Source: Catajapyx aquilonaris (lineage: Eukaryota). From it: a stretch of 64,000 nt of DNA. Shown here in pieces: positions 3,001-47,841 of this stretch. The notes below the pieces were generated by a model. That model saw only the letters and a list, made by a program, of their open reading frames with translations, was not told the origin of the DNA and did not search any database. The DNA is taken from assembly GCA_000934665.2 (NCBI GenBank), contig KZ537993.1:1-64000 (forward strand), given 5' to 3'. The stretch's first letter is position 1, and the number at the start of each line of letters is the position of its first letter. A program made the position numbers and the translations under genes.

Positions 3001-6000
3001 GATTATCATATCATGAATAAGTCCTAGGGTGTTGATTAGGAAAAATGCAAAAGTAGCTGCAGTCTGTTTGATCTCGTATATATCTATTCATGACGTCAGG
3101 TTAGGATCCTCATCAGGAGAGGATCTTATTGGCATTCAGGACACTTCCTATTGAGATCACGCGCAGAACGAATCCGAATCCCGGTTCTAGAATGATGCAA
3201 CCTAGAGTCTGAAGCTACTCGCAAATCTCAGCCACTTCTCTCAGCAACGAAATTGAAACTCGAAGTCAGTTAAGATGTCTCCTAAGATTCAGTCTCTTGG
3301 AAGTCTCTAGAGACTACAAGAATACAAAAGTGTTTTCCACCAGCTATTCACTCAGTGTCACAGTGGTCCTGGCAGATGCAGTCGCATCAAGAGACCCTGA
3401 CTAGTTAAGTGCACACCCGTTTGAAACCATTGGCGCGAATCCGGAGAGACGAATTAGCGACTCTTCCCTTGCAAACTGAAAGTCCAGAGTTGTGGAACTG
3501 AGCTGGTGATGAGCGTAAATACACCCACATTTACCGGTTATACACTGTTTGAGGACGCGGGGGGTACGTGTTCTCGACCGTACCGTTGCGTTGGTTGAAT
3601 TGAAGGCTAATTAATTCAAAGAGGTGGGCCCGGAAACGCCGACACTTTGGAGCCAAGTAGAATTTCAAAAGCTCATGCTGTGATGCTCCCGGTGGAGTTA
3701 ACGGTTTCGACTGGTTCAGAGTGCAAAGTTTTCATGCCACTAGAACTTTTTTTCAAAAAAGGCAAGTATCTGTGAAGTTATGTAATGTGAGGTGATTGAT
3801 TTCCTATTTCCCATGAGGTATCTACCACCGATCAGATAAGAGAAGAAATATATCTGGCAGCGACACAGCCCAAAAATACAATGTAAATATTCAAATAAAA
3901 AATGAACTACGCAGTACTGCAAGGTCATTTTCTGTAATAAAGTCGAAAAACAGCATGCTTATACCCTGTACACATTTCTGATTACAGGTTCAAGCACATA
4001 AATCTGGTAATTCTACCGCTGTATCAGTGTGACTACGTAGATTTGGCTTTCCCAACTGATGTAATTGCACTTAATGCATATTCCCCATTGTATTCCAGCA
4101 AGTAACGAGCACTGGCCACTAATACCACTCTAGCCGCAAAAATACCGAGCGAGAACACTATTGCACTGTAACAGTTAGCAATATCACGCAGGACAGTAGC
4201 ATTGCAAAACATGGTTTCATGCACGTCAATGGTGGCAGGGCGATAAGAAATGTGTGATTTCCATGCTGCATAGTGCAGTGGCCTGAATAATACGCTCGTT
4301 TGTCGCAGGTTAGACAAATGTAAACAGTACACTGGGTATATGACTGTATGCATTGTGAGTATAGGCAGACTGTGTTGGACTAGGATAGAATATAAGGTAG
4401 TTCCATTATAAATTAAGAATCCTTAATTACAGTGTTAATTTAAAGTTGTGTTTGCTCCAGTTGCCCTGTATACAGTACATCATAATAATGGTGGATGCAT
4501 TTCGGCGCAACTGATTATATGGTCTAAAATGAGGTGGAGTTTGCATCTCACTTGATTATTCGATGTTACATTCTCTGCACTTGCCACTGTTTAACAGCTC
4601 ACCAACAATTGGTGATTGAAATACAAATGTATGTATAGTACCCACATTGTTACCAAACCGCATGCAGTTGAGTGCCCAAGCAGCTGCTAAACGTTGCGCT
4701 ATATTATGCAACATTCAGCTCTACCAATACTTTAACGTATTATTAATTACATGCTATTACATATAGTATTAATGATATTCGGGGCATGCAAATTAAGTCC
4801 AATGTCGGCTTCCACACCCATGCCTAGTCCTTTTTACGCTGTCTGGTGTGACTGCATCCCAAGGGGAATGCTTTCTGCAGTAGCCTACTGTACTTCCAGG
4901 GTCGTAAAGCTCCGAAAAGAGTGGCTGGCTCGAAGTGAAATGGGTTGAGAGTAAGAGCATGCATATCAGACGGGGTGGGTTCAAAATAATAGTCGAGGGT
5001 CATTCCCAAGCTGGAAGGAGGCAATGACCCTTCTGGACATGCTAAACGTCCTCGTGGTGTCCAAATACGCTACAGAAATACGCTCTCTTACCTTGTTTAC
5101 CTTGTTTTTTGATTTCTGACAAATTCAGTGGACGTTCTGCGCCATTTTTATAGTACAGAAGTTGTCAAAATTTTAAAGCGATTCCGCAATTCCGCCTCCG
5201 TGGGAGCCTTCATTCTGCGCCTTAGGCTGGGTTCTAAAAAGTACAAGTTTTCTTCTTGCTTCTGAGCCTAAAGCAATTGCGTAGGACCAGAGCTACACCA
5301 AAAAATAACCAACACCATTTCTCATGAATAAAGCCCCTGGTGTAGTGGTGGCGTATCGCTTCACATTGCAAGGAAAGAATATTTCACAAAATCTGTGACG
5401 GCGGGGTCTCGGAATATCAGAATTCTTGCCAGAAGGCCCTGTAGCCATGTGCGGAGTGGCAGAGACGTGAGGTGGGGAAATTCAATCTGATCTATGCGCT
5501 TTCACTCACTTTCCACACTTTCTGGCACTCAACTTGCGGCAGAAATGTTTCGCACAGCAGGGTATGTGAGAGATATCCGACACGTTCGTTCTCACTTCAG
5601 ATGCATTATTGTAGGAATTACACTCCGTGAGAATATGTTAATTTTAAATATTTTGCTAAGTGGTACACATTGTCTGCAAGCAGAAGGTACACTTTAGATG
5701 TAAGAAGTTCATGTAATTAAAAGAATTTGACACGAGTGACATTTCATCTTATAAATAACAAGGCATAAGTTCTTATCTCTGCTAAGGAGCTCATAGCTTG
5801 TTATTTTTGTTGTATAGTGCTTTTGTAGATACAGTACTTGCTTCCTTTTGTGACTCTGAATTGAAAGTATTGGGGTCCTGTTAGTTGTTAGAAATTTTGC
5901 AGAAGCTCCATAATTGGACACCTCGATCGGGAGCTACACAAAAGCATCACAAAAATAACAACTTCGGGCGAAGTTTTTGACAACTATAAAACGACACCAA

Positions 6001-9000
6001 TACTTAGAACACACTCTATTTTACTGCCAGTTACCCCTGATGTAATAGCAAACCTTTACCCTCCCTGCAAAGATGAGAGCAAACCTTTCCGATAGTCCCA
6101 AAACTTGCAAAAAAGGAAGATGTGCGGGTATCCTTTCATCCTTAATTGTGATAAAGTATGACATACTGCTCCCCTTCGGCACGTCGGTGTCTCCACGTTG
6201 ATCCGATCTGTAACAAATTGCTGCTGGTAACCCTGATTGCCTTTCTGACCTCGAAGATCCAAAAAATAGTAGAAAGCAGTTCGTCTAGTCTGCCCTTGGG
6301 AGAGCCTATCTAGTGACACAGATGTTGGTGGTAATCAGCACGATTATACCGAAAGCAAATTAATCAATTATTGTAACAACTAGGGAACCAATATTGTTTT
6401 TGCGCTTAGTGTTATGTCAGCAAGGGTTATCCATTGTCAAGATCGATTGGCACACACATTCATGATGATAAGCTGGTACAAACACCATGCGTGCTATTGT
6501 AATTACGCACGTGGCCGTAAAAGGCGACATCACCAACGTGTGAAATCGTATTAACATCTGGTTCGAGAGGAGAATTAAATCGACAACCTTTTCAACCTAA
6601 AGTGATCGGTGGGAAAAAAATACCCTTCCAGAAGATGGCCACTTCCTGTAGCTATGGCAACGTGTTCTGGACCGTCAGATCCGGCAGCCAAAGCGCCCTG
6701 TCAGCAAAAGAAGGATGAGCTTTCAATGGAGCAGCTGATCTCATTATGCAAGGGATCGACGTGGAGAGATACGTTGCGGCGCATGCAGTATGTTTGCAGT
6801 CATGCCAGGCATTCAATATTTTTTGTATGTACTGTCGATGCGAATCCCATAATCCGTGGCCCTCTGCAAACCACATAAAATGCCCAGTAGCGCATTGTAC
6901 ACTTAAGCCCATTTCGCCTATATAATTAACTTGCGCCATATCTGTAATCGTAACTCGCTCATTATGCGCCAGTACGTAATACCCTTGGCAGATCTCTTGC
7001 GGCCGCATTGTTGCATGGTTAAGTGAGAGTTGTTGCAGTTCAAGCACACGAAGGCGTATTTCCGTTCAGTATGATCATTGGAGCTAATCTGGAATTAAGC
7101 TAAATTAGCATTCTGCTGCATGGTGGTTGATCAGTTGTACAGCTTAATATTTCAAAACAGCTCTGTAAGGATTTTGTGAATTTTTATGCTTCATGGTCAT
7201 CTTCATCCTGACATGTCATGCAACCGCACCCTTGTATCACATGCACCATAACCTGCAGGCGCAAGAAGCACTTGTCGCAGTGATATGTAGCAACTTGTCC
7301 GTGATCACAGTTTCATTATTACAACTTTCATTTTTGCAATATGTTGAGTGAAGACACAATTTGCTACTTCCGCACTTTTCAAGTATTGTTACATTGAATG
7401 GATTCACCGTCTACTTTTTCTACGCTTCCAAACTGACATGCGGCTTAGGAACTTTATCCGGAAGAAAGTAACTCTGTCGGCCAGGATGTCGCCCGTAATC
7501 TTTATACCGCCAACAGTTGTGTGGCCAGATTGTGAAGGAAATTCAGATCCGACGATCCCAAACCTTTTCCACCCCTACTTCTGGAAAGAGGGTCCAGGGG
7601 CCGGACGTGATTGGCTCTCTTTATGCTTGACCACGACACTCTTGCCATCCATTTTCATAAACCTTCTCGCCTTTTCCGGTCGTCAACGGTCTTTATGGAT
7701 GAACCCTGAAAAAAAATCCAGTGGGCTCATCTTTTCAGCACCACCAGGCATGACCTGAGATTTGGGAAATATTGGCAATTTGGGACCCTTTCCAGACAGG
7801 GGTCGAGAAGGGATTGAAACGCGTTTGTGCACGTGGCTCGGAAATGGCGGCGAGGGGACGACACTTTTTTTCACAGGGGAGTTTAATGCCCTAGGCCTAA
7901 AATTCCTTCTTTGTATGCCTTTCCACCCCTGCCAAGTCAACCAGTTATTCCCTTGCGGCTGAAAATACAAAGAGATGGATGGAATACTGTTATGGTTACG
8001 GTTATTGCTAGGTCTGGGATGTAGAGAAGGGTAGGAGAAAGCCTGGGTTGGGGTGTGACGGCACGTGCTGCTTGGATGTCGTCCTGGATTCCAATTTTCC
8101 AGTCTGTCGAAATAAAGTTCTGGTCTGATGATCATGGAAAAATGCCAGGAATATTATTTACATATTTCTGTATGACTGGATTTATTTATAGAGGTGTCTG
8201 TGTGTTTGGTATTGCTTTATGTTCGAACGATAATTAGGGGCATGAAGCCTTCTGTTTACGTTTCATGCAGGTCTAAATGTAAAAACAACATGCTCATCTG
8301 CTCATCGATCGTCGTGTGTTCCCTATTTTGCTATTCAGCAATCCCTGCCCCGTTCATTAAGCTTACTTGTTCTTAAGGCATATACCCAAATGCAGCACTG
8401 GTTAACAGTTACCAAAATATGAATTTGCTTGTATACAGTATGCGATACTGCGATTGTGAATAAATAAAAATGTGTTTTTGTGAGCATTAAATTAAAGTTA
8501 TTTACATCAGGACTGAACAACTGTTTTATGCCGTGTTAAGGGGACAATAGTTATTTACTGCTATATAGCCTTTGGTAACCTTCGGAGGCAAATGCGGCTA
8601 CAGTAGTCAAGGTCACGGGCATACATGCGAAAGATCTATACAGTATAGATGAAAAAAAGATATAACTATAAACTCCCCTTCCCCGCGCTTGATTAAACTT
8701 CCGTTACGAGCACCAAACGGCATATTTTCACACTTAAATTTTCAATATTTTCAGGGGTAAGAACCTCGAACTCAGTCCATAGCTGAAGTAGTATTGGGAA
8801 GGGAGAGGTTACAGACCTGACTATGCTTTTCTTTAAGACGCAAAAGGCTGGTGTATAACCTTTGGATTTAAAACCAGATTGAGGTTTGGAGCTTCAAAAA
8901 ACAGGATGGAAAACTCTAGGAATTCTGTAGAACTACTGGCCTACTAATTGCGAACAGGCTTACCGGCTTACACATGCTGCAGGCAAGTATTTGACTAGGC

Positions 9001-10789
9001 CGCAGCTGATCCTTTAAGATTAATCCACGTGCTTCAATCAATCACTGGCAGCCGTCTAGAAGCTGCACCTTAAAGTAACGCTCATCCATTTTAACGCCTC
9101 CAAAAACCTCCATCAACCTTACAGTATAGTTACAGATATCTACAGTGGAAGCTGGCATTCCACTTTCCAATTGAAAAGAATCGTTTTGTCGCTCTCCAAT
9201 CCTAAATCAAACTATAACGATGGACCATTCGTCCTGCGTAATGAGCATGCCCAGCCGGGAATGTGCCAGTGGCTTCTCACCCACGATTACCCACAAACCC
9301 GGCCGCTTCCAAGTTTTCTAATGAGTATTAAACGAGTATGTAGTTAGTGCATGCCAACATTATTTGCAATTTGGATTTAAGAGGCTCTTTCCCCTGCAGT
9401 AATTGTAAATCACATGGTCAATCAATGCCGCAGTAAGAGCCGCTGTAAAGCTTAGTATCAGGATGTAATAAGTTGGCACTACTGTTAACACAATGGATCC
9501 TAGGCTCTAATTAAATTTTGGGGTATTCAATAAGGCGTTGAGGGTTGTTGCACGGGCTGGACATTTGATAGACTGGCGCAATTGCCGATAAAGAGTAAAG
9601 TGGTCGTATATGTGTGTGTTTTTGCAGCGTAATTGTAAATTCAAGTGGCCATGCGAGAGGTGGGGCATGCATTTACGGTACGGCAGTGAAACAACTTTGC
9701 ATGATTAGGGATTCTGTATACTCTCACTTTGAACCTGAGCTTTCATATACGAGATTTGTCGGCGATGGGGATTAAGTGCGAAACTCCGGGAATTTGACCG
9801 CAATCGGTTCCGCATTCCCTCACCCAAAATCAGATTTTGCCAACCCGCAGCAACCTCAAACTTGCTCTTGATTTTTGTCTAAGTCTTTCTAGGTCTGGTA
9901 GGAGCTTTTATCTCGGTGCATAAAGTCATGGAGTAACTTTGCCGGTGGCAATTTGGCTCGACTTTGCGGGAGAGTGAAATTATTTAGCGCAAATATAATG
10001 CTACTTGAGCATATGTCATTCCCAGATAGCAGAGTATATAGCTGTATTTGACTGTTTGTTAGAAACCGCATGTCATGGGTAAATTGCTTGCTCTCATTAA
10101 CACAAAATCGGATTTAGTTTGGTAAATACAGATGTCAATTAGCGTCTGCGGATTATTGTACTGCGCGTTAATATTTTGGCGAAATATCAGCTCTGGTTAG
10201 TGTCGATGTTTTCATCAAATGGTTGTTTAATACGTTTAAACTATAAAAGGTCACGTGCATTTTTAATGGCCAAACCAGAGAGCAATAAAGGAGGAATGAA
10301 AGTTTACTTAGTTTCTCTCAGAGACACTATAACGAAGTAGTAATGTCCGCCCACCATTGCACGTTCTCTTTAGTGGCTGCAACTTTTGTTGTCCAGCAGT
10401 GCACAACGTGTCTCATGTGTCCAAATAAAAGTCCAGGGGTCCTTCATGGGTCAAAAGTTCACAGGTTAGTAAAACTAATTGGTGCAAAGAAAAGCAAGTG
10501 CCTTGCGGGGAATTCATCTCACCGTGACTTTCCGTCACATGTCAAGAGTTAGATGAACATATTAGAAAAGACAATTAAACACTACACTGCGACGAAACAA
10601 GTACCTAGTCACCCCATTTCAATATTTAAGGGCTTACACATCAATTTTATCAGTTTTATCCATTCTGTATGGCATTTATCTTCCTGCAGATTAGGCAGAG
10701 CTATTTGCTTAGCAAAGTAGTACTTACAGTGCAACATGTCTGCTACAGCAGCATTACAAAACAGCTGATAGTGTCGGTATCTTCGGTAA

Positions 10790-13700
10790 ATGCTATACAA
10801 ATTTATCTTTTTATTGCTACTGCTGGTTTTTATATTGCTGATACCGGCAGCGCCGAATATTGTAAACGACGGACGCCTGGGAAAAAAAACTCGGGGAGAT
10901 TTGGCAGGATCAAGCGGAAAAATGTGTGCTCATTATTACAACGTAGCACTTTTTCTGGTAAACAATGTTAGAGACAATCATACAGTACATATGCATAATA
11001 AAGTAACATGCTATACAGGTAGAAAATTTGAGTAGATATTCGGCGCGATAGGGGTCATATTACAAACAGTGCACTTAGTATATTCAGTATAGCTACGTTA
11101 CTTTTCATGTACTTTATCATGTGGTTGTTTAAGTAATTCATGTCAGGAATATATATTTATTACATTAATTGATAATTGGTCATTGTCGATGAACGGAATG
11201 AGCACTATGGGTTTTTTTGGCACAGAGATAATGCAGAAAAAGTTTTATTGCTAGTAGGCCTAGTCTATATTGTAACAGGAGTAAGTGAAATGAGATGGCT
11301 CTTACATTATTGGTGAAAAGTGATTAGGTTGTGAGAAAATAATTTGACCTGATGGCAGGGATCCATAACTCTTTCATGTTTCTGGCTGAGAGAGTAATAT
11401 TATGAATCATTTCGAGCAGTTAAAGATTAACAGCATGTGGGGAGGAAATCAGGTGTTTGTTATGGCAATATTACCTACCGGTGTGTGTTTACCTTCATAG
11501 TTGAATTTGAAGTGATATTTTGAACCTTTTTCTCTCTCCTTCCTGTGATGTGACATTGATCCGAGGGATTTAGTAAGGCCCCTTACATCCCTGTGTTGAC
11601 GCCATGTACAGTATAGCACCAAGATGGGATAATAGGCCTATAGTCTATCTCGGTGTATGGGGTCAATAAAGGGGTGGAATTAAGTAGGGCGGGAGGTGCT
11701 CATTGTTAACGAGCATGTTGCGGCCCCGAAGACCCCCCATTGGCGGGTCGACCAGGCCTCTCCCATTCGGGAATATACGATGCGTAGAACTTATCTTGAC
11801 ACCGTCATTGCTCACTCGCTCATATTGTGTTATTTTTCTTACCTTGTCGGGTAAATATTGTAATATACATTAACATCATGGTTTTCTCTCTCTATTAGAC
11901 TAATGCACATTACACTATCTCACTCGAATGGAACAAGTAACCTCCTGGCGACATAGCGAGAGCAATAAGGAACCAACAACACCTTCCAATAACAGGTTGA
12001 AGTAGAAGCGTGGATGTTTCTAAAAGGCGAGTTTCCTGTTAGCCAGCATGATAATCCATTATCAGGAACTTTATGCAAATTAGCTCGCGAGAAAGAAATC
12101 CCAGTTGATTCCGCCTTCTCTGTTGGATTAAGAAAGGATTCAAAGGAAGAAATTAAGTGCGAACCGTAAGCTATAAAGCTGCTGGTGCATTATAAATTTA
12201 TGTTCCGCTGAGGTATAGTTGCGAGGATTTTGAAATTTATATCAGCCTGCTGAATTTCTCTACGTATTTCTGCGGTTTTAATTACGTTATTTTTTACTAG
12301 GCCGGCTTAATTAATAATGAAAGAGACAGGCGTGATTTTGTTATCCCAGTATTATTTTCTACCTCGCTTTGAATAATATTGTGCAAAATAAGTCAGAATT
12401 CGTTTTAAATTTCATCTTACAAAGGCTGAAACAGTGCAGGTTGTTATTAATATTTGCGAATAATTGTAATTTGTCGTGAGAAAGTTGTTAAGCCGATTGC
12501 CCTTTGATTTTATGTAGAACAACAAATTTGATGCAATTCTGTGGTTTATAATGATAATAACTCACTTCCAAGCATTAATGGACGTAGAATAGTTACGGTA
12601 TATCTGAAATTGACGTAATGAATAAAACATTAAAATCAAAGAGATCCCGCTGAATAGGGACGTGATTGTGTAATTAAAACATCATTTGCCTTGTTATTTG
12701 CATGTAAAATTTAATGTGCATAATGAGCGTTTTCAAAGCTCTTAACCACTTTAGCTACTACTGTACTAGATATTATTTCTTTAATCTGCCTTTCTATCCT
12801 AACACGATGTTAAAATTGTTTGCTTTTTAAGTTATATTGTTTCAGTTATGACATGAATGCAACAGGGGAATATTTTTGATGTTGTGATGGGGTCCACGCT
12901 GTGAATGTGATAATTCATAGATTCAAACCTGGTTATTACTATGCAAACGCAACGCCATATTGTGGCCACATTAAAGATGATCGGCATGTTCAGCTTAAAG
13001 TACATCATACATACATGTACAGTATATCTTTTCCCATATACAGCATATTGCTAAATTCAATTATCTTTACATAGCGTCAACATATAAAAACAAAACACTT
13101 TTTGAATTTTTGAATTGTGCTCCGCCACTCTTTCTATCCGAAATAATTTCACCAAATTAACAGCGGAGATAATAATGTGCTAATTTCCGTCATTGTCCCT
13201 GAGCGATGTCTCGTGCAAAAGAGATCGGTCCCACCAGCAGATTTCCAATGAAAAGGAATAGGAAGAGACGAACACTTCATCTATTTTACCCTCGTCCTGT
13301 CCAGGACACCTGACCGTGATAAACGACTGCCTTGAACGCAATCGGTGAGGTCTGAAGGCTTGACCGCGGGTGCGGCAGAGCAGCAGACATGGCCAGCCCC
13401 TATATATATGGTGAGTCCACCAAGTGTGTGATATTGGCTTGGTTGGCACAAGCATCTAGCCTTGAGTGGCAAGCAAGGTCCAATGAACAAGCAATCCCAG
13501 CGTTATGATGCCATTTTGGGCGCAGTCTGCTACCAGCCAGGAAAAGCTGTCGCTGAGATGAGCATGATCAACGCAGTCAGAGACATGTTACCACGAACAC
13601 GACCTTGTTAAAAAGCACGACTGAATTTCTAGATTTCAATGCTATTTGTTCTCTGTGGTGCTTCACTGGGGATTTGCTCAGGGGTGTGTGAAACTAGAAT

Positions 13701-16087
13701 GTGAAGTAGCACATCTGCTTTAAAGTATGGTACTCAAAGTGTCAATTTTTCGCCCCGTTATATTATGTTTTGGCCAATAAGGCTCATTGCTTGTAAATAC
13801 ACCCAGGTGCTTTAATTCCTCTCTGGCCTGGTTCATTGGTGTGTTACATTTATACTGTACAACCTGCCCATCACGCGGTCAGACGCTGTGTTTTTATTGG
13901 CTAATTAAATACTGAGAGTCAGGTTTGCGTACATGCTCCAGTTTAATCAAAATAATTATATTTTAAATCTGCCTTCTGGTAGTGCTTATCTAATACAACT
14001 ATAAAGGTAGGTAAAGCACCCTGGGCGTACTAGGGTACCGCATACACGTAGTGCATTAAAGGCAAATATTATGGCACCATCCACTTGTGCAATCCTAAGT
14101 CGGTGTAATTCTGCTTCCGAGCTGGAGCTTAATGCAGGCCCATTATATCCCTCGTCCTACTAAACTGCATAATTCCTTCCCTGCCATTTTATGAATGTTG
14201 ATCGAACCTTTCCAGGGTTTTCCTAATATTAAGGGGAGTATTAATTATTCAAATCCTGCAGGGCTCCCGAAACACCGCTCACTTAACAAGCGCAGGTAGA
14301 TGCCTCCGTCCAAATTTTTTAAACCCAACAAAAAGCAGGAGCACTTTGGCTCCACAATGGAGACATTTATCAAGCAATTCCTAGGCAGGAAGTGTCTTTG
14401 AGCGGAAGTCGAGAAATTTCATTAGAGGCCCAAGAGATGAGACTAAAGCACTCTAGTGGCCGCTGAGACGCAACAACTTCCAGGCCATTGTAGCCCAAGT
14501 CATGTGGAATTTCCAGAAACGTGTGTGATCAAGCTAGGCCATAATTCCATTGTTCTTTGAAGGGTGATTGTACAGACACATGCAGATTTCAGGAGGAAAA
14601 TTCCTCGGATCTTATCAATTTCAGCTATTGTCATACCTTTCTGTGCGAGATTCTGAAAGTGTTTTTTTTTTCTGGGTCTCAAAGGAAATAACGGGGCTGT
14701 TTTGAGTATGCAGTAACTTTAAATGGGAAAGGAGCGCAAATGAGACAGCGAAGAACACCGGGAGATAATTAGGACAATTTTTTGCTTCAAAAGCGCTTAG
14801 CATTTTATGAACGAGAGCAGTGTTGTCACGTTCTTCGTTACGAAATTAATACCACCACGTGCATGGGACTATAATAATTTATGCGACAGTTAAAGTAAGA
14901 CATAATAAAAGCAGTAAAAGCAAGGGATAAGTGAGGAGAAAAACGTTAGAGTAATGCCTTGGTAATGAATGCAATTAGCGAGGTATGTGAAACATTGCTT
15001 TACATTATTCCATCGGGTCGCTACAATATAAGAAGCTCACTTCCAGGCGGTGCCAAAGAAAAAGTGCTATAAAAATGTCATTTTTTTGCTTGCTTACCAA
15101 AGGCATAAAAAGCAACATCTGAGTAATGATTTTCCGGGATAGTTTCAGAACTTCTGGAAGCCATTTGCTCAAGTGTTGTTGGTGCGACCTGGAGGTAGTT
15201 ACATGTCGCTTGCACTCCCATCCTCCAGCAAGATTAGTAATTTTGAACATCTGTTGTATTAAATGGTCTAGCAATAAAAATTGTCACTTTTTGCAGCGTG
15301 TACACTTCCAAGCAAGTGTTTTCTCACCCCAAGTGTTTGTTCATAATATTTTGTTCGCAGCGGGTTTTTTTTTTGTGGCAGTATGCCTATTTTCAATTCC
15401 GGGTCTATTAAAGAGCAATATTGTCCTATTTGTAACAGGCTCACTTCAGTAAGAAACTGGATAAATTCATAGTGTGATAGTATTTCATTCTATCAATCCA
15501 GTGCAAGGGATGCTTAAACCAAGAGACTATACTCACTTCGGTACTCAGGTGTAAAGTACACCTGAAGTGGTACCCTTTGGAACTCTTCGGTACTCCTTAG
15601 GTACTCCTTGGCGCTCCCAGACAATAAACAAATATGCTCGTAACTTCAGGATATTTTCCCTCTCGTGTCGTGCTTCCAATCCCAAGGGGCTAAAAAAATG
15701 GTGCCGGAACCCGGGACCTTTCACATGCAAAGCGAAAGCTCTACCACTGAGCTACACCCCCACTTCGTAGGAGTAATTGCTTCATTACGAGGGGACCTAT
15801 GAACATGTTAATATTGAACGTAATTTCATGTAGGGTGATGACACCCTTTCCAAATCTCCAAAAAGAAGGGCATAGATGCTCTGTATAGGCTATTATACTA
15901 TAATAAATACGCCTTTTTACTTCAGCATAACCTAATTCAAACGTCCTATTTAATGTCTCTGTCTCTATAAAGTGAGTGATGGCCAATAGTTTCACAACTA
16001 TCTGTTCTCTTCCTCAGATGCCTGAAGGAGGAGCAAGAAATGCAGAGAGGAACGCTCCAAGGAATATTGCAGCACCATCATACCTAG
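10790..16087 (+). CDS. Hypothetical small spliced gene (candidate exons 10790/10851-10957, 11996-12165, 16018-16087); unverified
   Basis: Three open segments have plausible AG/GT boundaries and compatible phases (CTG|gtaaac; aacag|GTT...CC|gtaagc; ttctcttcctcag|A TGC...TAG), followed by AATAAA at 16189 and 16214. No homology recognised. Confidence 0.2.
15699..15761 (-). pseudogene. tRNA-Ala(TGC)-derived pseudogene or SINE head with deleted T-loop
   Basis: Minus strand reads GGGGGTGTAGCTCAGTGGTAGAGCTTTCGCTTTGCATGTGAAAGGTCCCGGGTTCCGGCACCA then T7. A box and anticodon arm are intact; the B box is truncated. Confidence 0.7.
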
Positions 16088-17179
16088 CGGAATCTACTTC
16101 TATGTGCGATTATGCAGATTAACTTTTTTCATATAATGCCTGTTGTGCCCATATCTGTGGATCGGAAAAAAACAAAAACAAGCTTGCTAATAAACGAACC
16201 TTAATTGTCCGTCAATAAATTCTTCCTTGATGAGATTCCAGGTCAATTACTAGTAACTACGGTGTGCAGAGGGAGGTTGCCCATTAGATCTTCAGGGAGG
16301 CAAGTACAGTATGTCATTAAGGAAATTTAGAATAGAAAGGCTTCAATTTTAGAGCATGTGATTGCCTCTAAACATTAAAATACGTAACTCAAGTATTCTT
16401 TAAAACGTTGGCATGTATTACAGTACTAGATAATTACCCGCATATGCAGTAGATATTTGTCATGTGTTGCATTGATCTAGTTTCTAGTGGCTAATATGGA
16501 GCTAATAATGGCAAAAAAATTGAATCTAGAAAATGTGTACCATCTGATTTTCAGACATACCCAGTTCACAACTGCATCAGATACTATCAATCTGGTTGAA
16601 CCATTCGCAATGTGATTGTAACCAGGAACCTCTCATTAAATGTGCATAATAGATGTTTCAAACAGTCAGCATTAGTATTATGTTTTAACTGATGCACGTT
16701 CATATTTTTATATACTTTTTTTGACAATTTTTAGTCCTTCATTTTGTACTCGTCAACACTGCAGGATTGTAGGTGAGCGATTCCTGCACATATACTCGTA
16801 GTCCCACAACAAAGCTGCGTGTTTTTTTTGTTCATGTTATTGTTGCTGTTAGAACAATGCTCTCAGGTCGAATATTTCAATACTTTGTTATTGCCTTCAT
16901 AGGAAGTATGAGGTGTGTGTCCGAAACTAGGAGAGAGACTATTCCTTAAGAGGGCAATAATTATTTGAAGGTGAACACTATTTAAATAAAAATCAAATGT
17001 GTCCCCCCACAAAAAAAATTGTCAGTATTTTCTTTTCATTGGTTTTGCACACTTTACTGTCATGGAGTTTTATGCAGAGAAAAACATGTCAAAATTTCTT
17101 GCAAGTCATTAGCCCATCTTGAAGTGATGGCGCCCTTTCTTTACGATAAGTACATGATGGAGAGAGTGTCAGTATCGAA

Positions 17180-17246
17180 GTAACGCGGTAGTCTAGTGGT
17201 TAAGACGCTCTCTTCGTAACCTGAAGGTTGAAGGATCGAATCCTGA
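17180..17246 (+). other. tRNA-like module 1 of foldback left arm (mirror copy 19040-19105, minus)
   Basis: A box TAGTCTAGTGG, D stem GTCT/AGAC, loop TTCGTAA, B box GGATCGAATCC, T5 run at 17264-17268. The anticodon stem pairs poorly. Confidence 0.6.
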
Positions 17247-17382
17247 AAGGAAGGCGTCGTTTCTTTTTATCGCTATGGACCTTTCTGGCTGCTACTTCAT
17301 CTCTCATTTCACATTTATTTCTCTTTGAACTGCATCCGGTAAATAGGCTAGACCCTTCCAACACTCACACTCTCGTTGCACC

Positions 17383-17452
17383 AGAGCGTGGCTCTGTGGT
17401 AACGCATCAGACTCTCAATCGGGAGATGTGGGTTCAAATCCCGTCGTCTCCA
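17383..17452 (+). other. tRNA-like module 2 of foldback left arm (mirror copy 18834-18902, minus)
   Basis: A box TGGCTCTGTGG, loop CTCTCAA, T arm GGG-TTCAAAT-CCC (B box GGTTCAAATCC), ends CTCCA, T6 run at 17478-17483. Confidence 0.6.
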
Positions 17453-20400
17453 CGGTTGAGAGTCAGGGGGCGGTCACTTTTTTCGAAGAAAAAAGACTTA
17501 AATTTAATCATTAAGAAAATTGAAGAATTCAGGTTTGTGTGGGCCGTCCCCAGCCCCCACCCTACCACTGCCCAAGTGGGTGCATTTACCTTATACCTGG
17601 GAGTTCCATTCTCAAACCTATCACCCCTCCAAATATTTAACTCTACCATTTAAACTATAGGTCCTATAAAATCACCAGCACATGCAAATGAATCGGCACA
17701 CTTTTTAGGGCATTTCCAATGGTTTGTTGCAGCCTGACCTTTGACCTGAAAGGCCCTAATATTAGGTTTTTGGTCTGGGGCCAGGCCCTACCTCGGTCTC
17801 CATCTGTCGGAGCTTTCGTAATGAGACTGTACAGAGCACAGTACATAGATATACAGTATATCTCTCCATGTGAACAAGCCTGCTAGCCTAATGTAGCGGT
17901 CCGCCTGTCCTTGTGGGTAGCGGGGCGGGGGTGGTATTAATGGGGGGAATATGTAAGGTCAAAGAGACAGGGAGGTGACCAAGGCTACACGAAAATTTGC
18001 CTATCTAAAACCGCGTCGACGATATATGCGCATCTCCACCCACAGCAGAAGCGGGTGGGGATTTATTATTTCATTAACCCATATAGAGCAATGCCACGAA
18101 ACAGTGACGCCGAATGTCCGTCCTGATGACCCCAAGGAGGTGACGATGACCACTCGCCTACGTCACATTCATACTGATACCAGCCAACTGGGACTGCTAC
18201 ATTTGGCTAGCCGGGGGGCACACTTGTTCACATGGAGAGATATACTGTATATCTGTATGTACTGTGCTATGTACAGTCTCATTACGAGAGACCCGACAGA
18301 TGGAGACCGAGGTAGGGCATGGCCCCAGACCAAAAACCTAATATTAGGGCCTTTCAGGTCAAAGGTCAGGCTGCAACAAACCATTGGAAATGCCCTAAAA
18401 AGTGTGCCGATTCATTTGCATGTGCTGGTGATTTTATAGGACCTATAGTTTAAATGGTAGAGTTAAATGTTTGGAGGGGTGATAGGTTTGAGAATGTAAC
18501 TCCCAGGTATAAGGTAAATGCACCCACTTGGGCAGCGGTAGGGTGGGGGCTGGGGATGGCCCACACAAACTTGAATTCTTCAATTTTCTGAATGATTAAA
18601 TTTAAGACTTTTTTCTTCGAAAAAAGTGACCGCCCCCTCCCATTAAGCAGGTGTCTTAAAATTTTCAAAAAAAAAAATCTCCCCTCCCCCCCTGTCTTCC
18701 CCCTCTCCACCCTCCCCCCCTCTTCGCTGCTCCTCTTACACCTCTGAAGAAGTGTTTGGGAAACTGCGAAGAAACAGTCGCCATCTTGGCCAGAGATGTC
18801 GGCTGCAAATTTTTTTTCTCTGACTCTCAACCATGGAGATCCGGGATTTGAACCCACATCTCCCGATTGAGAGTCTGATGCGTTACCACACAGCCACGCT
18901 CCGTGGTAACGAAATTGTGGGTGTTGGAAGGGTCTAGCCTATTTACCAGATGCACTTCAAAGAGAAATAAATGTGAAATGAGAGATGAAGTAACAGCGGG
19001 AAAGGTCCGTAGCGATAAAAAGAAACGACATCATTTTTTCAGGATTCGATCCTTCAACCTTCTGGTTACGAAGAGAAAGTCTTAACCACTAGACCACTGC
19101 GCTACTTCGATACTACATTCTCTCCAGCATGTACTTATTGTAAGGAAAGGGCGCCACAAAATGTAGTCGGCTTAAACACTACTTACATACAGGTGTAACT
19201 GACCACCTCTCCATACCTCCATGAAATCGCTAGACATGTAACACCAGCCCTTCACATCAACAACTGTTAACCTGCCCCAAGCGGTTTTTGACCAAAGCTT
19301 TGCGGCTGAAGTTCAAACTGTCAAACACACTCCGCAATTCTGAAGTGCATTGCGTGGCATCAAGTTTCTCCCGGGAAGCTCCAGGCACTTAATGTGTTTA
19401 AAGTCGGTGCCTAATTAGCAGCATAGTAATTCCGCCACATTATACTGTTTTCAGCTAATTGGCTACTTGCTTGTGCGTATCATAAGCTGCAGCTCTCTGG
19501 GTTGGATAATTGAACTAGCATACCTCGGCAGGAGATAAAACGGATTAATTTCTGCCAGTACAAGCTTCGCTGGATAGCCACTTGCGAACTGTCTTAAGAC
19601 CTGGCCAGACATTCTGCCCCGCCCGTCTAAATTAGCCTTATAAACTGATTTACACGAGGATATTGCCTGCTGCTTGTATTATAATGACACAAATTTGCAT
19701 GTGCTTTAAAAAGGGCTATAAATTGAGACGCTAAGAAGTTCAGACTTTAGTTTGGTGCCGGGAACAACAAGCTGGTTTTGCGTTGCTAATGTATAGCCTT
19801 GAGCATTTTGCTGCAAAAACAAGGAATGAGAAAAGAGGGAAACGTCACTTACATAACAGGCTTCCACTCGCTGCCCTTGTTAAAGGTGCGTCAAGAATCT
19901 CATGCGTTGTATAATATTCTTGAGGGGTCATTAAAATTCTCGATGTATATTCATGGTGGTAAGTAGCAATTCAGTAAATTCGATAAAGCATTAAAGGAAA
20001 CTAAAATTAATCGCTATATTTGTACGTTAAGCTCACTCTAATAGTAAGCCCATCGCCCATGGAATAATGATTAAAATGAAATGTAACCTCATTATTAGAA
20101 TAGTGTATTTGCATTTGTCGCATTTTAAAAAGTTTAATTACTGCACTATTCAATATTATGAAATGTTACAAGTGGCATAATATTGGATAGAAATGTCCCA
20201 TGAGCGCAGTCCATTATTGTATGCCTGAAGTGCTAAATACCATACAGTATACCCACGTCCAACTAACAGCTCTTGAACGGCTCATTATGATGCACGCATC
20301 ACACACTTGTTGAGCGCCTACTTTTAAAATATACACATTTTCCATTGCCGAAAACCTTTCAAGAATGCACCAATATGGGATTGTGTCGGCTTGTCTGCAG

Positions 20401-23400
20401 CACATAGGCCACTCACTTACTGGAGGATGTCAATCTAAAATCGCTTTTCAGGAAGCACCCAGCAGTAAACATGTATAAGTTAACTGTTAAGGGAAGCCAG
20501 AGCTCATAGTGAGGGCGTGCACTACATGCTCTACTGTTTCATTAGTATTTATAGCCCTCTATGGTGAAACTTGCAATGTTTATTCCAGTAGTCTACATTC
20601 GCATTATTTTTGTAATAGTTTTTTACTTGCAGTAAGACTCGTACACATAATTACATACTGTATGACTATACCTTCCCAGGTTTTCGTGTAGGTCTATAAC
20701 TTTCCTACATTACAACTGAAGGTACTGTAGACATTCCCTGTTTGGTAAGGCTCCTTTTGTTTCATCATATTATTAAAAAAACTTATTTGTCTTACATTTA
20801 CATTGCAATTGCAGTGTACGACCCTGGAGGTCGGTAATATAAATTACACCCCAGGATTTCAGGATGCAATGAGGTGATTACCGCTGAGCATGATGCTTCA
20901 CTACAACATGTGGTACTGGACTTAATCCCTCTTAGCCTATCGCAATAACCTCTGACGTGGTATTAGCCAGAGGGGCATAGGCTGGTGTAGTTGAAGGGTC
21001 GGCTGGCTAGTTACGAGCCATAATATGAAGTTTGGAAAACCTTTGTTCGCCAGGGCACGTAATTTCGATGTCAGGAGATCCTTCAGGAAGAAGTGGTCGA
21101 TAGCCGCTCCTCATTTACACCTGTTGATGCGAAGCGACACATCACAAGTCTAGCCCAGGGGCACTCTCCTTCACTCCTTGTACCTGTCAAATGACACTGT
21201 TAAGTGACACCATAACGATGTAAGTCTTGGCCTCGACCTCCTGAAACTTTCATGGCCCCTTAAGTGGCTGCCGGATGCCAAGCGCTGCGTCATGTGTCGT
21301 TGATGCTTGTTCCTGTGACGTCAACGTCTTTTGCTTACTCTGGTCCAGTCAGGACTTGGAGGATGGACATTACGCGCATGCCATTATCTGTGTATGTTCA
21401 GAGGACGGGACATAAAGAGTTTTACGAGTTGACAGTATTTGTAGACAAAGACCACAACAAGGGAGTGCTATTATGTCATTCCGTGGTTCTAAACGAACGT
21501 GACACCCCGTGTTATTGCTGCGATTATCAATCGATCCCCCTGCTCAAATATTGTCCTAGTGAATCCCGAGAGTGATTTCGGCCTGACACGGCAAGAATGT
21601 TAACAGGCAGCTGCATGTCATCTGGTTAATTGTGACTCGTTTCGGTTTATTGGCGTCATAAACAAAGGTTGACTGTCCGAATATTTTTTTTGTACCGTAG
21701 GCCTACCTGTCGTGAAGTGACTGGGGAAATATATTTCATGCAGACCCTTGCAAGTGTACTGGATTCGTGAGATGAAAAAGAAATATAAGTAGATTCATCA
21801 CATGATGTTTGTTTGATAATAATTACTGCGCAATTTCACAAATACACTACACTAATGTTGCAATTATTGCATTAAACATGATATCACAGGCTGGTTCTTA
21901 CTCATCGACTGTGCCTTGGCCAGTAGTGGCGTAGTTATATCCTGCAGAACATTCTTGTCACCCAAGCCATGGCCGTCAACTGGCGAGATTGAGCCAGAAT
22001 ATCCTTTGATAAGGCCTCCCTTTCAGTGTAAGTGCGGGGCATTGTTGTGGCTTACTGTGAATAGGGTATGGCTTTTCTACAGTACTTGCTTTTTACGTTT
22101 GAGTGATGGTGAAAGTAGTGCGGGAGAGTAGGTTATAATTATTTATTTTCAGCCTAGAAGTCGCCGATTGTGGAGCACTATTCTCGGCAGGGAAACTTTC
22201 AACTTGTTGCATTTTCATCAATGAACTTTTTGATATCAAATGTGCATTCAGAGCGGTAGGGTTTATTCAAACGTTTGATGCCATTATTAATGACTCTCAC
22301 TCTCACTACCTTTTATTTCTGGCACAGTGATTTTCAAACGTAGCCTACTGCCAGCTTCCTGTTTGAAAAATTCGGCGGAGAAGAGACTATAGGCTTGGAA
22401 AGGGCAAAAAAATGATATATGCCAAAAGTTAAAGAGATACTGCCTATGCAGGAAGCGTATTTGGCTCTATGCCCTTATAGCCAACGGCACCAGCACATTT
22501 CCTTCGTTTTATAAAAAAAATTAGAAAACTCTATTGATTTTGAATGTAAAGCAGGGCTATTAGAGCTCTGGTTCCTTTAAAAATATATGTTCACCATAAA
22601 TGCACTGCTGGTTGGATTGCATTACTTTACAACCACCATGAGAAAGTGTTGTTTCCTAAAAAGTGCCTCTAAACACAATTAGCAAATGCGCACATTTTTA
22701 TTAACCTCCAAGCGACTATGATGAAAACTGCTCCCAGTCCGATCGCAAACTTTTTCCAGGACACATCGCTCCCTTCTCCCAGACTCGTAATTCCAAGCCT
22801 TAAAACCACAAAGGTAAACCTCTCCCGAAACTGAAACTTTCCATCTGATAAATTATCCTCCGCAATGAAATGCTTTTCCCCCAGCAACTTAGTGCTTTGC
22901 ATAAATTACGCCCGTTATTTCTAAATAACTCAGTCAGCCTGTAGCTAAATTTCCCCACAAGTTTTGCAAGTGTAATGTTCTTTGAAAATTCTTAAATTAC
23001 TTTTTAGGTCTCCCTTAGTTAGCAAGCGTATAGTTGCGGCTTTTTCAAGTTACCTGCGAAGAGCTTCTTTACTGGTGGTTATCTGAATTCGCAGCAACAG
23101 CTTGAGCTCAGTGGTTGCTGTCACCGTCAGAGACTTTGCTCTTTCTCAACCAGCTTTAACTACTTTCCTCTTGCAAAATTCCAAGGCCAATGGACACAGC
23201 TTGGCTCTTGCTGAATAGCCCCACAGAGCTTTTCCAGGTGACTGCTCTTTGGCTTTGCTATTCTATTGGGACTCTAAGTTGCTCCTGGGTTTGAGATGAG
23301 AGTCGCAGCCTGTAAGGCTAGGTTTACTCTTCATTTATAGATGAGTTGCGATGGAGATTGCAGTGCGGTGCAGTACTTCGGATATTTGCTTTTTATTAAG

Positions 23401-26684: not shown

Positions 26685-27467
26685 TCAGACGTGAGTGGTG
26701 GTGGTCGTGGTGGTGTTCATGTCAGTCTGCGGCACCAACACCCATTTGTTCAGTATCTTGGGCCTGAACAGCTGCCCGAAAGTGTCGCGGAATTGTTTAC
26801 TCATCAGACAATACAAGATGAAGTTGATGGCACAGTTGCAGAGAGCCAGGATGTCCATCACTTCCCCCAGGATGGCGTAGCAGTCATCGAAAAACCTTCT
26901 TCCCAAGATGCCCGACAGCAGGCCCATAATGCCCTGGGGAAACTCGGTGATCAGGAAAAGGAAGAGGACGGCCAGCAGCATCCGCGTGGTCCGATCAGTT
27001 GTCCTTTGTCCCTCCGAGGCCTTGTTCTTATGGTCAGGCGCCTGCGCGAGGGACGGCGTCCTCTTGGCCATCAGGTTCTCCTTCCGCTTCCGGGCCTCAA
27101 CCAACGCGAAGATAAGCCTGAAGCTGAGAGCAGTCAGAGCAGCGCATGGAATCAGCTTGATGACCACGCTGTAGATCCAGAAGTTGACGTTGAAGAGCAG
27201 GAAGTTGTGTGCTTGGGCCAGCCTGCTTAGCCCCATTATGTAAATGGTGGCTGTGGTGTTGTCCGGGAGGGGCAGGGGGGCAGAGTTGATGGAGAAGGCG
27301 AGGAAGGAGGGGATGCAAAGGATTGGAGAGAAGATGTAAGCACTGACTATGGCCCATAAGGCCCGGCTGCTGCTGCACCATGCTCGGTTTTGTGCAGGGT
27401 AGCACACCATCAGATAGCGCCACACTGCTAGGGTCAGGGTCAGCCATATGGAAATGGTGTGGAACAC
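26685..27467 (-). CDS. MsR: Myosuppressin receptor-like class A GPCR, coding exon 2 (TM3-TM7, C-tail)
   Basis: Acceptor ccttccag|GTG, phase 0. Motifs FHTISIWLTLTLAVWRY, NFWIYSVVIKLIPC, DRTTRMLLAVLFLFLITEFPQG and INFILYCLMSKQFRDTF are typical of insect myosuppressin/DMSR receptors. Confidence 0.9.
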   Translation of the reverse strand: MFHTISIWLTLTLAVWRYLMVCYPAQNRAWCSSSRALWAIVSAYIFSPILCIPSFLAFSINSAPLPLPDNTTATIYIMGLSRLAQAHNFLLFNVNFWIYSVVIKLIPCAALTALSFRLIFALVEARKRKENLMAKRTPSLAQAPDHKNKASEGQRTTDRTTRMLLAVLFLFLITEFPQGIMGLLSGILGRRFFDDCYAILGEVMDILALCNCAINFILYCLMSKQFRDTFGQLFRPKILNKWVLVPQTDMNTTTTTTTHV

Positions 27468-28239
27468 CTGGAAGGAAAATGGAAAGACTGCTGTAAAGGC
27501 CTGGAAATTGCTTCCAACACTTTCATGGCCCTATACCAATCTTATTTTTCCGGACTGCTGGTATACCGAATTTACGTGCCAAGGTCTGTATTATATGCTT
27601 ATAGATCCGGCAGTAAATTTTGATATTCTCCAAGGAATGCGATACTATTTCCGCATCGCATAATTCCGCATTACGCGGCCAGGAAATTCGCTCAGTCGTT
27701 TTGCACCGCCTGTTCCACTCGTACTGTTATGTCATTATGAATGTTTCCGCACTTCGAAACACATTGGATTAATCTAGGACCTATATTAAATTTTTTGATC
27801 GCCACACTGGCAAGTTCGTAAAGGTTGTCGATTCCATCTGTCGCTATTTTTAAAGGTTATGCCATTTTAAAGTAGAGAATACAAAATTGGCAAGCTGTCG
27901 TCGCTAAACAAATTGATGAAATTTTTTTCTTGGTGCAGACGTGACCATTGTCTTGCACAGATTGCTCTGGCTCCACCCTCCCAACAGAGCATTAATTACT
28001 CAGTTTAATTAAAAGGACGCGATACTGCTTTAAAGTCCACTTAGCTCCCAGAAATTCAATTATGGCGACTCATGGGGCCAACTGAGACTGTGCGTGACCC
28101 GTCAGAGGCTCTTCCCCTTTTGTGTAGGAGAGAACTTTCTTCTCTTTATATTGCTTTTTTTTCAACCCAATCGACCAGTTCGTCTAACTTTGCCCTTCCA
28201 GAGAACTGCGCAGTTATTTATAGTCTAATGAAACATCCA

Positions 28240-28325
<86 letters not shown>
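28240..28325. repeat. (TAT)n microsatellite in the GPCR intron
   Basis: Uninterrupted TAT run of ~28 units. Confidence 0.97.
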
Positions 28326-36746: not shown

Positions 36747-36748
<2 letters not shown>

Positions 36749-46967: not shown

Positions 46968-47025
46968 GTTATCACCATCTTTGGGCAAAAGGGTTTATTC
47001 AAAATCCCATGCCCTTTTCCTTGTA

Positions 47026-47785
47026 CAGTGCTGGACACAATAGCATATAACAAGTGTAAACAACGACTTTGGCGTTACCTGGCAACTGGTCGTGTTCGGA
47101 CATCGTCATGTGGAGAGTGCTTAGCGTTCTTTCTGTCGTTGCCACTGTTTACAGGTAGCGATTGATGCTGGGACGAAGGGTGTGTGCATGCTTACCAATG
47201 CATGGCATCGGAATAAGCGGGCTGAGGGGGATATTATTTTGAGAAGGCGATTCGTTATTATCACACTATCGTCACTGTCTTATTCCCACGATGATGGAGT
47301 TACGGAATGGACTCTGACAGTAATTCAGAACGAAAATGTGCCTCTTACCCAACCAACCCACCCTCTTTCACACACTCTCACCCACCCACTACTCCCCTTT
47401 CATCCGTTACACTGGACTTGATTGGGAGTGGATGACATTCAATGTGGACCTTACATTAAATTGGCAGACAAGAGCATGTACCGGACTCCTTCCCGATCAT
47501 TCAGTAACTCCATGCATCCTGACTAATACTGGAAAGTGACAACAGTGTGATAATAACGAATCGCCTTCTCAAAATAATATCCCCCTCAGCCCGCTTATTC
47601 CGATGCCATGCATTGGTAAGCATGCACACACCCTTCGTCCCAGCATCAATCGCTACCTGTAAACAGTGGCAACGACAGAAAGAACGCTAAGCACTCTCCA
47701 CATGACGATGTCCGAACACGACCAGTTGCCAGGTAACGCCAAAGTCGTTGTTTACACTTGTTATATGCTATTGTGTCCAGCACTG
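47026..47785. mobile_element. Tc1/mariner-type MITE (760 bp) with 242-bp perfect TIRs
   Basis: TA flanks; TIR starts CAGTGCTGG as in Tc1; 47026-47267 is the exact reverse complement of 47544-47785. Confidence 0.9.
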
Positions 47786-47841
47786 TACAGTAAGTACCCT
47801 GCCTGGAGAATATGAAGCCAAAAGACCTTCTCCCTTTGTAC

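Follow-up and report, generated by a model that had tools for sequence, protein, structure and literature searches.

Anatomy of the inverted arms

Positions 17128–19156 of the window (the whole 64-kb stretch of DNA analyzed here) form a near-palindrome of 2029 bp, in which a repeat search, blastn, and MAFFT alignment place two inverted arms around a spacer. The 2-kb inverted structure noted in an earlier sequence-only reading of this DNA is real, and the dimensions given there, arms of ~775 and ~965 bp around a spacer of ~290 bp, were confirmed as 775, 966, and 288 bp. The locus thus displays the trait that defines a foldback-like organization, with inverted arms (775 + 966 bp) making up most of the 2029 bp. 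Its features are:

17128..17902, + strand: left arm, 775 bp, in the order terminal leader, unit 1, linker, unit 2, inner body
17128..17182, + strand: terminal leader, 55 bp at the outer end of the left arm
17183..17255, + strand: unit 1, left copy, with A-box-like and B-box-like motifs (1 mismatch each, gap 33)
17264..17268, + strand: T5 run, 9 nt behind left unit 1, Pol III terminator-like
17383..17452, + strand: unit 2, left copy, with A and B boxes (1 mismatch each); Rfam tRNA match of 27.6 bits
17478..17483, + strand: T6 run, 26 nt behind left unit 2, within a small local hairpin
17903..18190, no strand: spacer (middle domain), 288 bp, non-coding, multi-copy
18191..19156, - strand: right arm, 966 bp, an inverted version of the left arm with 181 additional bases
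18625 and 18677, - strand: T6 run and T11 run, respectively, in the right arm
18639..18819, no strand: segment found in the right arm only, 181 bp, directly behind unit 2
18833..18903, - strand: unit 2, right copy; Rfam tRNA match of 22.5 bits
19017..19021, - strand: T5 run behind right unit 1
19030..19102, - strand: unit 1, right copy, with A-box and B-box-like motifs

Five modules occur in the same order and with the same junctions in both arms, and the tRNA-derived pieces must therefore predate the reverse copying of the arm. The palindrome itself was probably made once. Similarity between the arms begins at the motif TGGCGCC, and the terminal leader is 92.6% identical to its mirror at 19103–19156. 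The surplus length of the right arm corresponds to the single segment 18639–18819, which is C-rich with A/T runs, is itself high-copy, and has no detectable target-site duplication (TSD) around it. As single-stranded DNA, the palindrome is predicted to fold at −907 kcal/mol, compared to −248 ± 14 kcal/mol for 10 shuffles, with 738 of the 775 left-arm bases paired with the right arm. A small local palindrome also lies at about 17847–17866, and TRF detected no tandem repeat array in 17128–19156.

Divergence between the arms is uneven. Without gaps, the outer arm part (17128–17464) is 90.4% identical (32 mismatches in 335 aligned columns) vs 96.6% for the inner part (17465–17902; 15 mismatches in 438 columns; Fisher p = 0.0007). 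This difference is real, and would fit a younger inner hairpin element (17465–18638) nested within an older outer one. However, identity is patchy by segment (84.9, 90.6, 94.2, 96.3, 98.5, and 93.1%), the outer part is CpG-richer (observed/expected 1.0 vs 0.37), and CpG sites hold 11 of the 32 outer and 4 of the 15 inner mismatches. In addition, the inner unit has no flanking TSD, and the corresponding empty-site joint (17464–18639) is not among the contig joints listed. The nested arrangement is possible, but we do not adopt it.

As in a non-autonomous form, neither the arms nor the middle domain have coding capacity: the three stop-to-stop ORFs of the palindrome (142–162 aa) contain no Pfam family, which bears out the earlier statement that a transposase ORF is missing, and no transposase was found in the window near the palindrome. 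The absence of an evident TSD, also pointed out earlier, held over offsets of ±6 and lengths of 2–12 at either end, apart from GCGC within the palindromic tip, in a test that concerns one copy only, with arms 3–10% diverged. To our knowledge, the arm tips fit no superfamily signature. A scan for bacterial-type promoters and terminators, irrelevant to an animal genome, yielded nothing above shuffles, and a DIRS-type internal complementary region was rejected, with no repeat of at least 20 nt between spacer and arm tips.

Pol III-like units within the arms

A/B-box pairs were searched with Pol III consensus motifs, each permitted no more than 1 mismatch, at a spacing of 25–60. On both strands of the 64 kb, the only pairs were those of the palindrome's four units (five pairs in total, since two A boxes overlap in one of the units), while 30 shuffles yielded none. 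Each arm includes two different A-box/B-box units that face inward, with a T run behind each; along the sense strand of the left arm, the T5 and T6 runs are followed by two more T5 runs further in. B boxes are identical between the arms, and right unit 1, which has the same B-box-like motif as its left copy, includes a match to the full A-box consensus (start 19104) that overlaps a second A-box-like motif. As for a SINE-type head at the very 5′ end of the arm, the boxes are present, but 55 bp lie upstream of unit 1.

The sequence-only reading had described these as two tRNA-like units per arm. The boxes, inward orientation, and T runs all stood, but the resemblance to tRNAs proved weak. Left unit 2 carries CUCUCAA at the anticodon-loop position, and the tRNA scores of both unit 2 copies (27.6 bits for the left, 22.5 bits for the right) are lower than the Rfam gathering score of 29. 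These two sub-threshold matches were the only ones in an Rfam scan of 16500–19800 at E ≤ 1, and a 121-base query with unit 1 had no Rfam tRNA match at a cutoff as loose as E ≤ 10. ARAGORN identified no tRNA in the window, none of the units folds into a cloverleaf in minimum free energy predictions, and the fold of unit 1, the segment in which the arms have diverged most (84.9% identity), is no more stable than that of shuffles (z = −0.02 for the left copy). The units are relics rather than tRNA genes, and unit 2 is a decayed tRNA-derived module. Penelope-like and retrozyme-type inverted repeats carry a hammerhead ribozyme in their repeats; none was found by the same Rfam scan.

These observations bear on whether the palindrome could be a working Pol III/TFIIIC locus, either as four genes for small RNAs or as a boundary element that the host retains. 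Such a function would be consistent with the only A/B pairs in 64 kb (and none in shuffles), with B boxes that are identical in both arms, and with one T run per unit. On the other hand, the units are sub-threshold or unscored as tRNA, no cloverleaf is predicted, the fold of unit 1 does not surpass that of shuffles, unit 1 is also where the arms differ most, and the depth of the sequence exceeds that of single-copy DNA by a factor of tens to hundreds (see below). We consider this reading extremely improbable. The small Pol III RNAs, hairpin dsRNA, and TFIIIC boundaries proposed earlier found no support here; decayed units combined with a depth tens to hundreds of times that of single-copy sequence argue against a locus-specific role.

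A second possibility is that two copies of a dimeric tRNA-derived SINE inserted independently, tail to tail, on either side of a 288-bp target. tRNA-derived SINEs include dimeric ones, e.g., Twin of Culex, and, like these, the studied arms each hold two tRNA-related A/B-box modules, both oriented inward, and display a high summed depth. Unlike SINEs, however, the arms have no tail and no TSD, a leader ahead of the head, internal terminators, and a palindromic build. Specifically, no TSD was found around either single arm or the unit modules, no A-rich or simple-repeat tail was found at the inner arm ends, and 55 bp precede the first head. The T5 and T6 runs behind each unit and the two additional T5 runs would also halt Pol III well before the arm end, and inner and outer end positions are identical for both arms. 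Tail-to-tail insertion is therefore very improbable, and the inverted duplication of a dimeric SINE suggested in the sequence-only reading is a poor fit to this arrangement of leader, terminators, and TSD-less, tail-less arms.

Multi-copy sequence of the palindrome in sequencing contigs

Next, we considered contigs from three DNA runs (X1, X2, and X3) of one sample of the same organism, of which 1368, 1003, and 1131, respectively, matched the 3.3 kb around the palindrome. Summed contig word depth, which does not equal copy number, was 3387–23127 (X1), 1169–13981 (X2), and 1832–17773 (X3) within 17166–19163, whereas the right flank (19164–19800), where depth is flat, gave 45.4, 18.8, and 30.3. 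The whole palindrome, spacer included, lies at 60–740× the depth of the adjoining single-copy flank, and the spacer at 84–193× (X1 bins of 3793–7238). Depth differs ~5-fold between neighboring bins, and this unevenness along the palindrome indicates a mosaic of sub-repeats. Individual contig joints skip single modules: one, from 17364 to 17595, omits unit 2 together with the next 140 bases, and another, from 17156 to 17254, runs across unit 1. No other copy was found within the 64-kb window, where blastn of 15000–21500 matched only the palindrome's own arms, and exact 26-base words from unit 1 and the inner arm had no match in public metagenome contigs or genome contigs.

In two diverged contigs whose flanks are different, the match ends at, or no more than 15 bp from, the right terminus. 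One of them, 4039 bp long (X1 record 6), has 27 other letters along with 3 gaps in 195; its match stops at 19157, beyond which the contig continues for 3.8 kb with no match to the right flank of the window, and a 1858/2069-bp contig (records 5, 13, and 20) stops matching at 19142 and continues in other sequence. Contigs from the flank of the studied locus itself start at 19086 and 19129 and run into the right arm, and a diverged contig in a shallow run of another study (X5 record 28, 18008–18253) bridges the junction between spacer and right arm with 183 + 63 letters. At the left terminus, the diverged contig X2 record 9 (17029–17235) crosses into the left flank, one contig joint links 16913 to 17281, and the left flank at 16944–17054 lies at 6–13× single-copy depth; in some copies, the shared sequence thus extends past the palindrome, and a larger duplicated block would account for this as well as a clean transposon end would. 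Where one arm carries a private change (17157, 17183, 17187, 17190, 17254, and 19077), nearly all other contigs have the letter of the other arm. At 17647, both arms share a C, and all 20 of the covering X1 contigs have an A. Among the contigs shown, none spans a whole copy, and no second palindromic copy was seen. Four further joints were set aside: two on opposite strands (17859/17977 and 17939/18235) with a shorter side of 36–37 letters, the first of which adjoins the local palindrome, and two (17129–18697 and 18180–18655) with shorter sides of 25 and 23 letters.

Could the palindrome be an assembly artefact, in which two repeat copies were misjoined in opposite orientation? It lies in a high-copy repeat region with no spanning contig among those shown, and a fraction of only 0.33–0.42 of its sampled 31-letter words is present in the contigs of any one run. 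Yet it contains no N (the window has a single one, at 42865), its arms differ by 3–10% plus indels and enclose a spacer, unlike hairpin-read artefacts, and the contigs from its own flank enter the right arm. We give such a misjoin hardly any credence.

A more serious alternative is a local inverted duplication of mosaic repeats (arm and spacer) through fold-back repair or template switching, in which only the component repeats would be multi-copy and the palindrome would not be mobile as a unit. The missing TSD, the module-wise uneven depth and joints that skip single modules, the sequence shared across the left terminus, and the C at 17647 that sets both arms apart from every other covering X1 contig are all consistent with this scenario. 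However, the spacer is itself far above single-copy depth, the spacer/right-arm junction is bridged in a diverged contig from another study, and the matches of the two differently flanked, diverged contigs end at the arm tip (19157 and 19142) instead of at a random breakpoint. Taken together, we regard a local duplication as possible, although rather unlikely.

The explanation we favor, with moderate confidence, is that the palindrome represents one copy of a multi-copy, non-coding, foldback-like family of non-autonomous DNA repeats that carries tRNA-derived modules as passengers. This partly upholds the earlier proposal of a non-autonomous DNA-transposon-like family with tRNA sequence in its arms: the multi-copy parts and the recurrence of the right terminus in other contigs support it, while the lack of a TSD does not. 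Under this explanation, the arms would be a patchwork of older dispersed repeats, two patches of which would be tRNA-derived and retain A/B boxes and a T run. Movement, present or past, would have occurred as DNA, most likely by an enzyme encoded elsewhere that recognizes the shared arm tips, with the Pol III modules as passengers. If transcribed at all, each module would yield an RNA of about 85–105 nt ending at its own T5 or T6 run, and modules whose RNAs end there could thus neither transcribe the whole palindrome nor serve as a SINE head. We infer the palindromic form of other copies, along with the movement as DNA and the passenger status of the modules. We regard the palindrome as an ordinary relic of a mobile element rather than a locus with a special regulatory role.

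Relation to known elements and implications

FB, Tetris, and Galileo are foldback-like DNA transposons of Drosophila, with TSDs of 7 bp in Galileo/P and 8–10 bp in Tetris/Mutator-like elements, according to the available passages of Dias et al. (2014, PMC4079207). As far as these passages describe them, the palindrome resembles all three in its very long, dominant inverted arms and non-coding middle domain, and in its modular build, rearranged forms in other copies, multi-copy status, and apparent non-autonomy. Relative to the same passages, it differs in that the studied copy has no 7–10-bp TSD and no known partner transposase, its arms are without tandem repeats (a trait that is not universal in foldback-like transposons), and they hold tRNA-derived modules, which these passages do not mention.

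A parallel to the modules themselves comes from TRIMp3 elements (Helenus, Ajax, and Cassandra), described by Kojima (2024, PMC10886601) as non-autonomous LTR retrotransposons with a Pol III promoter of small-RNA-gene origin in each terminal repeat, possibly through insertion of a SINE into that repeat. Like these, as characterized there, the palindrome is a short non-coding element with small-RNA-derived sequence in both terminal repeats that conserves the boxes and is not a working tRNA. TRIMp3 repeats are, however, direct LTRs associated with a PBS/PPT and 4–5-bp TSDs, whereas the studied arms are inverted, with a T run straight behind each unit and no TSD, and the text of that paper includes no mention of “inverted repeat” or “DNA transposon”.

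The palindrome also resembles palindromic (hairpin) MITEs in being a non-coding, hairpin-shaped repeat, and the window holds three such repeats, i.e., the studied palindrome and two more. A MITE of the Tc1 type has features that the palindrome lacks, namely CAGTG tips and flanking TA:

47022..47789: Tc1-type palindromic MITE, CAGTG tips, TA on both sides

In the titles and abstract openings of the literature found, tRNA-derived modules in inverted arms were not described, although the family may already be catalogued in Repbase or Dfam, and three short unit motifs had no occurrence in literature text. As it stands, the finding matters little and adds one more modular, hairpin-shaped repeat. 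It illustrates that tRNA-box modules can ride passively in long inverted arms and thereby mislead tRNA and SINE annotation, and a near-palindrome of 2 kb is a potential DNA hairpin and rearrangement site. A bolder version, in which the arms of a foldback family keep working Pol III promoter modules with their own terminators, as an inverted-repeat counterpart of TRIMp3, seems improbable to us. If true, every insertion would bring in four convergent small-RNA genes or TFIIIC sites, with the boxes maintained by selection on the family. The occurrence of small-RNA-gene promoters in terminal repeats would then, if the boxes are conserved family-wide, reach beyond LTR elements (Kojima 2024) and include inverted-repeat elements, an extension that we did not find in print.

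Architecture and history of the arms

The proposed palindrome with paired, inward-facing tRNA-like units was borne out by our analysis, with arms of 775 and 966 bp, a 288-bp spacer, and four units that each combine an A box and a B box.

Features of the element
17128-17902, left arm, 775 bp
17903-18190, spacer, 288 bp
18191-19156, right arm, 966 bp
18639-18819, 181-bp segment, right arm only, missing from the left arm
17264 (+), T5 run behind unit 1, left arm
17478 (+), T6 run behind unit 2, left arm
18677 (T11) and 18625 (T6) (-), T runs behind unit 2, right arm
19021 (-), T5 run behind unit 1, right arm

The right arm is the longer one because of the single 181-bp segment. Arm-to-arm identity rose from 90.4% in the outer part (17128-17464) to 96.6% in the inner one (17465-17902; Fisher p = 0.0007) and was patchy by segment, with 92.6% for the terminal leader, 84.9% for unit 1, 90.6% for the linker, 94.2% for unit 2, and 96.3%, 98.5%, and 93.1% along the inner body. 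The outer and inner parts also differed in CpG observed/expected ratio (1.0 vs 0.37), and 11 of 32 vs 4 of 15 arm mismatches, respectively, fell at CpG sites. The predicted single-stranded DNA fold of the element reached -907 kcal/mol vs -248 +/- 14 for 10 shuffles, pairing 738 of the 775 left-arm bases to the right arm. No second copy was found within the 64-kb window.

Five modules recur in both arms in an unchanged order, joined at identical junctions, which indicates that the tRNA-derived modules predate the reverse copying of the arm. Contigs from three DNA sequencing runs (X1, X2, and X3), all made from a single sample of this organism, were matched to the 3.3 kb around the element at ≥80% likeness. 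At changes private to the left arm (17157, 17183, 17187, 17190, and 17254) or to the right arm (19077), nearly all other contigs carry the other arm's letter, so that both arms have diverged, each in its own way, from the consensus of the family. A single site, 17647, with C in both arms vs A in 20/20 covering X1 contigs, hints that the two arms may be each other's closest relatives.

The tRNA-like units

An A-box/B-box scan of both strands of the 64 kb (consensus motifs, ≤1 mismatch each, gap 25-60) found pairs only at the four units of the element, and none in 30 shuffles; there are five pairs in all, as two A boxes overlap in the right copy of unit 1. All four units point toward the element centre, each with a T run behind it, and units 1 and 2 are different sequences sharing only positions general to tRNAs. 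ARAGORN detected no tRNA in the window, unit 2 matched the Rfam tRNA family at 27.6 and 22.5 bits (both below the gathering score of 29), unit 1 gave no match over 121 bases even with the cutoff relaxed to E ≤ 10, and none of the units had a cloverleaf as its minimum-energy fold, which rules them out as tRNA genes. Unit 1 folds at shuffle level (z -0.02 and +0.65), and unit 2 shows some structure (z -2.56 and -2.92). Set beside the box pairs, these results leave a working Pol III/TFIIIC locus a very unlikely reading.

T runs are the stop signal for Pol III, and the modules would therefore yield at most RNAs of roughly 85-105 nt and could not transcribe the whole arm. Accordingly, the arm is not SINE-like in build, and SINE insertions arranged tail-to-tail, for all that each arm holds two tRNA-derived units, are an improbable origin.

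Elsewhere in the window, a tRNA-like sequence at 15696-15761 (-), missed by ARAGORN, scored 37.8 bits against Rfam tRNA and so cleared the family's gathering score (29). It has GCA (Cys) at the anticodon-loop position, an apparently shortened T arm, a CCA end followed by T7, and a fold at shuffle level (z -0.73). The sequence is probably either the pseudogene of a tRNA or a retroposed tRNA/SINE head.

Neighbouring repeats and genes

Immediately left of the element, 16500-16943 is another dispersed repeat (summed X1 word depth 990-3556 vs 45 for single copy) with no further copy within the 64-kb window; X1 depth falls to about 400 at 16944-17054. A second palindrome (47022-47789; 258-nt arms, 99% complementary, 252-nt spacer) has CAGTG...CACTG tips flanked by TA on both sides, which we take to be a Tc1/mariner signature, and is likely a young hairpin MITE. 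In a third (48872-49658; 198-nt arms, 89% complementary, 391-nt spacer), short ORFs in the middle presumably resemble the N-terminal helix-turn-helix of mariner transposases; Pfam searches of two pieces returned no family. Perfect trinucleotide microsatellites lie at 28240-28325 ((TAT) x 28.7) and 36748-36826 ((ATT) x 26.3).

The window is part of an animal genome. The 281-aa open frame at 26685-27530 (-) matches Srw-type (E 6.6e-30) and rhodopsin-family (1e-15) 7TM receptors and is a host GPCR gene or exon. Two long frames, 56258-57901 (+; 547 aa) and 58626-59642 (+; 338 aa), contained no Pfam family; a host gene with large exons is their probable source. The nearest Atlas clusters of the former include PRD1/MEI1, rotatin, and BRAT1-type TPR/HEAT proteins (0.93-0.95, with cluster recognition below the usual level), and its product looks like a helical-repeat protein.

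Repeat depth, termini, and nature of the element

The three runs yielded 1368, 1003, and 1131 matching contigs on the 3.3 kb. Summed word depth across 17166-19163 was 3387-23127 (X1), 1169-13981 (X2), and 1832-17773 (X3), against a flat 45.4, 18.8, and 30.3 in the right flank (19164-19800), i.e., 60-740 times single-copy depth, although this measure should not be read as a copy number. The spacer, too, is multi-copy (84-193 times single-copy depth), and depth shifts about 5-fold between adjacent bins.

Summed word depth along the element in X1
Unit 1 bin, 22847
Unit 2 bin, 4514
17610-17831, 18242-23072
Spacer, 3793-7238
181-bp segment bin, 23127

One contig links 17364 to 17595, leaving out unit 2 along with the next 140 bases, and another links 17156 to 17254, bypassing unit 1. 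Together with the uneven depth, this indicates that the arm is a mosaic of sub-repeats of differing abundance.

On the right, a 4039-bp contig with ~85% likeness along 195 bases matches as far as 19157 and then continues for 3.8 kb, and a 1858/2069-bp contig stops at 19142 and continues beyond; flank contigs of the locus itself start at 19086 and 19129. The first two provide sequence evidence for a putative fixed right terminus. On the left, one diverged contig crosses the terminus (17029-17235), one joint connects 16913 to 17281, and 16944-17054 lies at 6-13 times single-copy depth, so in some copies the shared sequence extends left of the palindrome, an argument against a clean transposon end. 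Mosaic repeats duplicated locally in inverted orientation are a possible though less probable origin, which the left flank favours and the right terminus opposes. None of the contigs shown from the DNA runs spans a whole copy, and no second palindromic copy was seen among them; a diverged contig from another study covers 18008-18253, bridging the junction of spacer and right arm. An assembly artefact seems most improbable.

No target-site duplication (TSD) was found at the outer ends, either arm alone, the inner palindrome, the 181-bp segment, or the unit modules. The element showed no coding capacity, its arms no tandem repeats, and, apart from the sub-threshold unit 2 tRNA matches, there was no hammerhead or other Rfam family at E ≤ 1. 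The foldback elements Tetris, FB, and Galileo are described as long-armed and modular, with rearranged forms and a middle domain that is non-coding (PMC4079207), and our element shares this build; unlike them as described there, it lacks a TSD at its one examined copy and arm tandem repeats, and we therefore class it as foldback-like rather than as a proven foldback member. TRIMp3 carries promoter sequence from small-RNA genes in both terminal repeats, proposed to stem from a SINE inserted into a repeat (PMC10886601). The logic is alike, with small-RNA-gene-derived sequence within both terminal repeats, but those of TRIMp3 are direct LTRs and ours are inverted arms. A literature search at listing level found no published description of tRNA-derived modules in inverted arms.

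The sequence-only reading had proposed either a non-autonomous DNA transposon with tRNA genes captured in its inverted repeats or an inverted duplication of a dimeric SINE. That interpretation finds partial support. Multi-copy parts and the putative fixed right terminus support a foldback-like non-autonomous repeat family, while the internal T runs speak against a SINE-type build. On balance, we lean toward such a family of DNA repeats, in which the tRNA-derived modules are passengers and whose copies would have been moved in trans through shared tips. Overall, the element is decayed, mosaic in build, and multi-copy, an ordinary repeat that is probably of foldback type.
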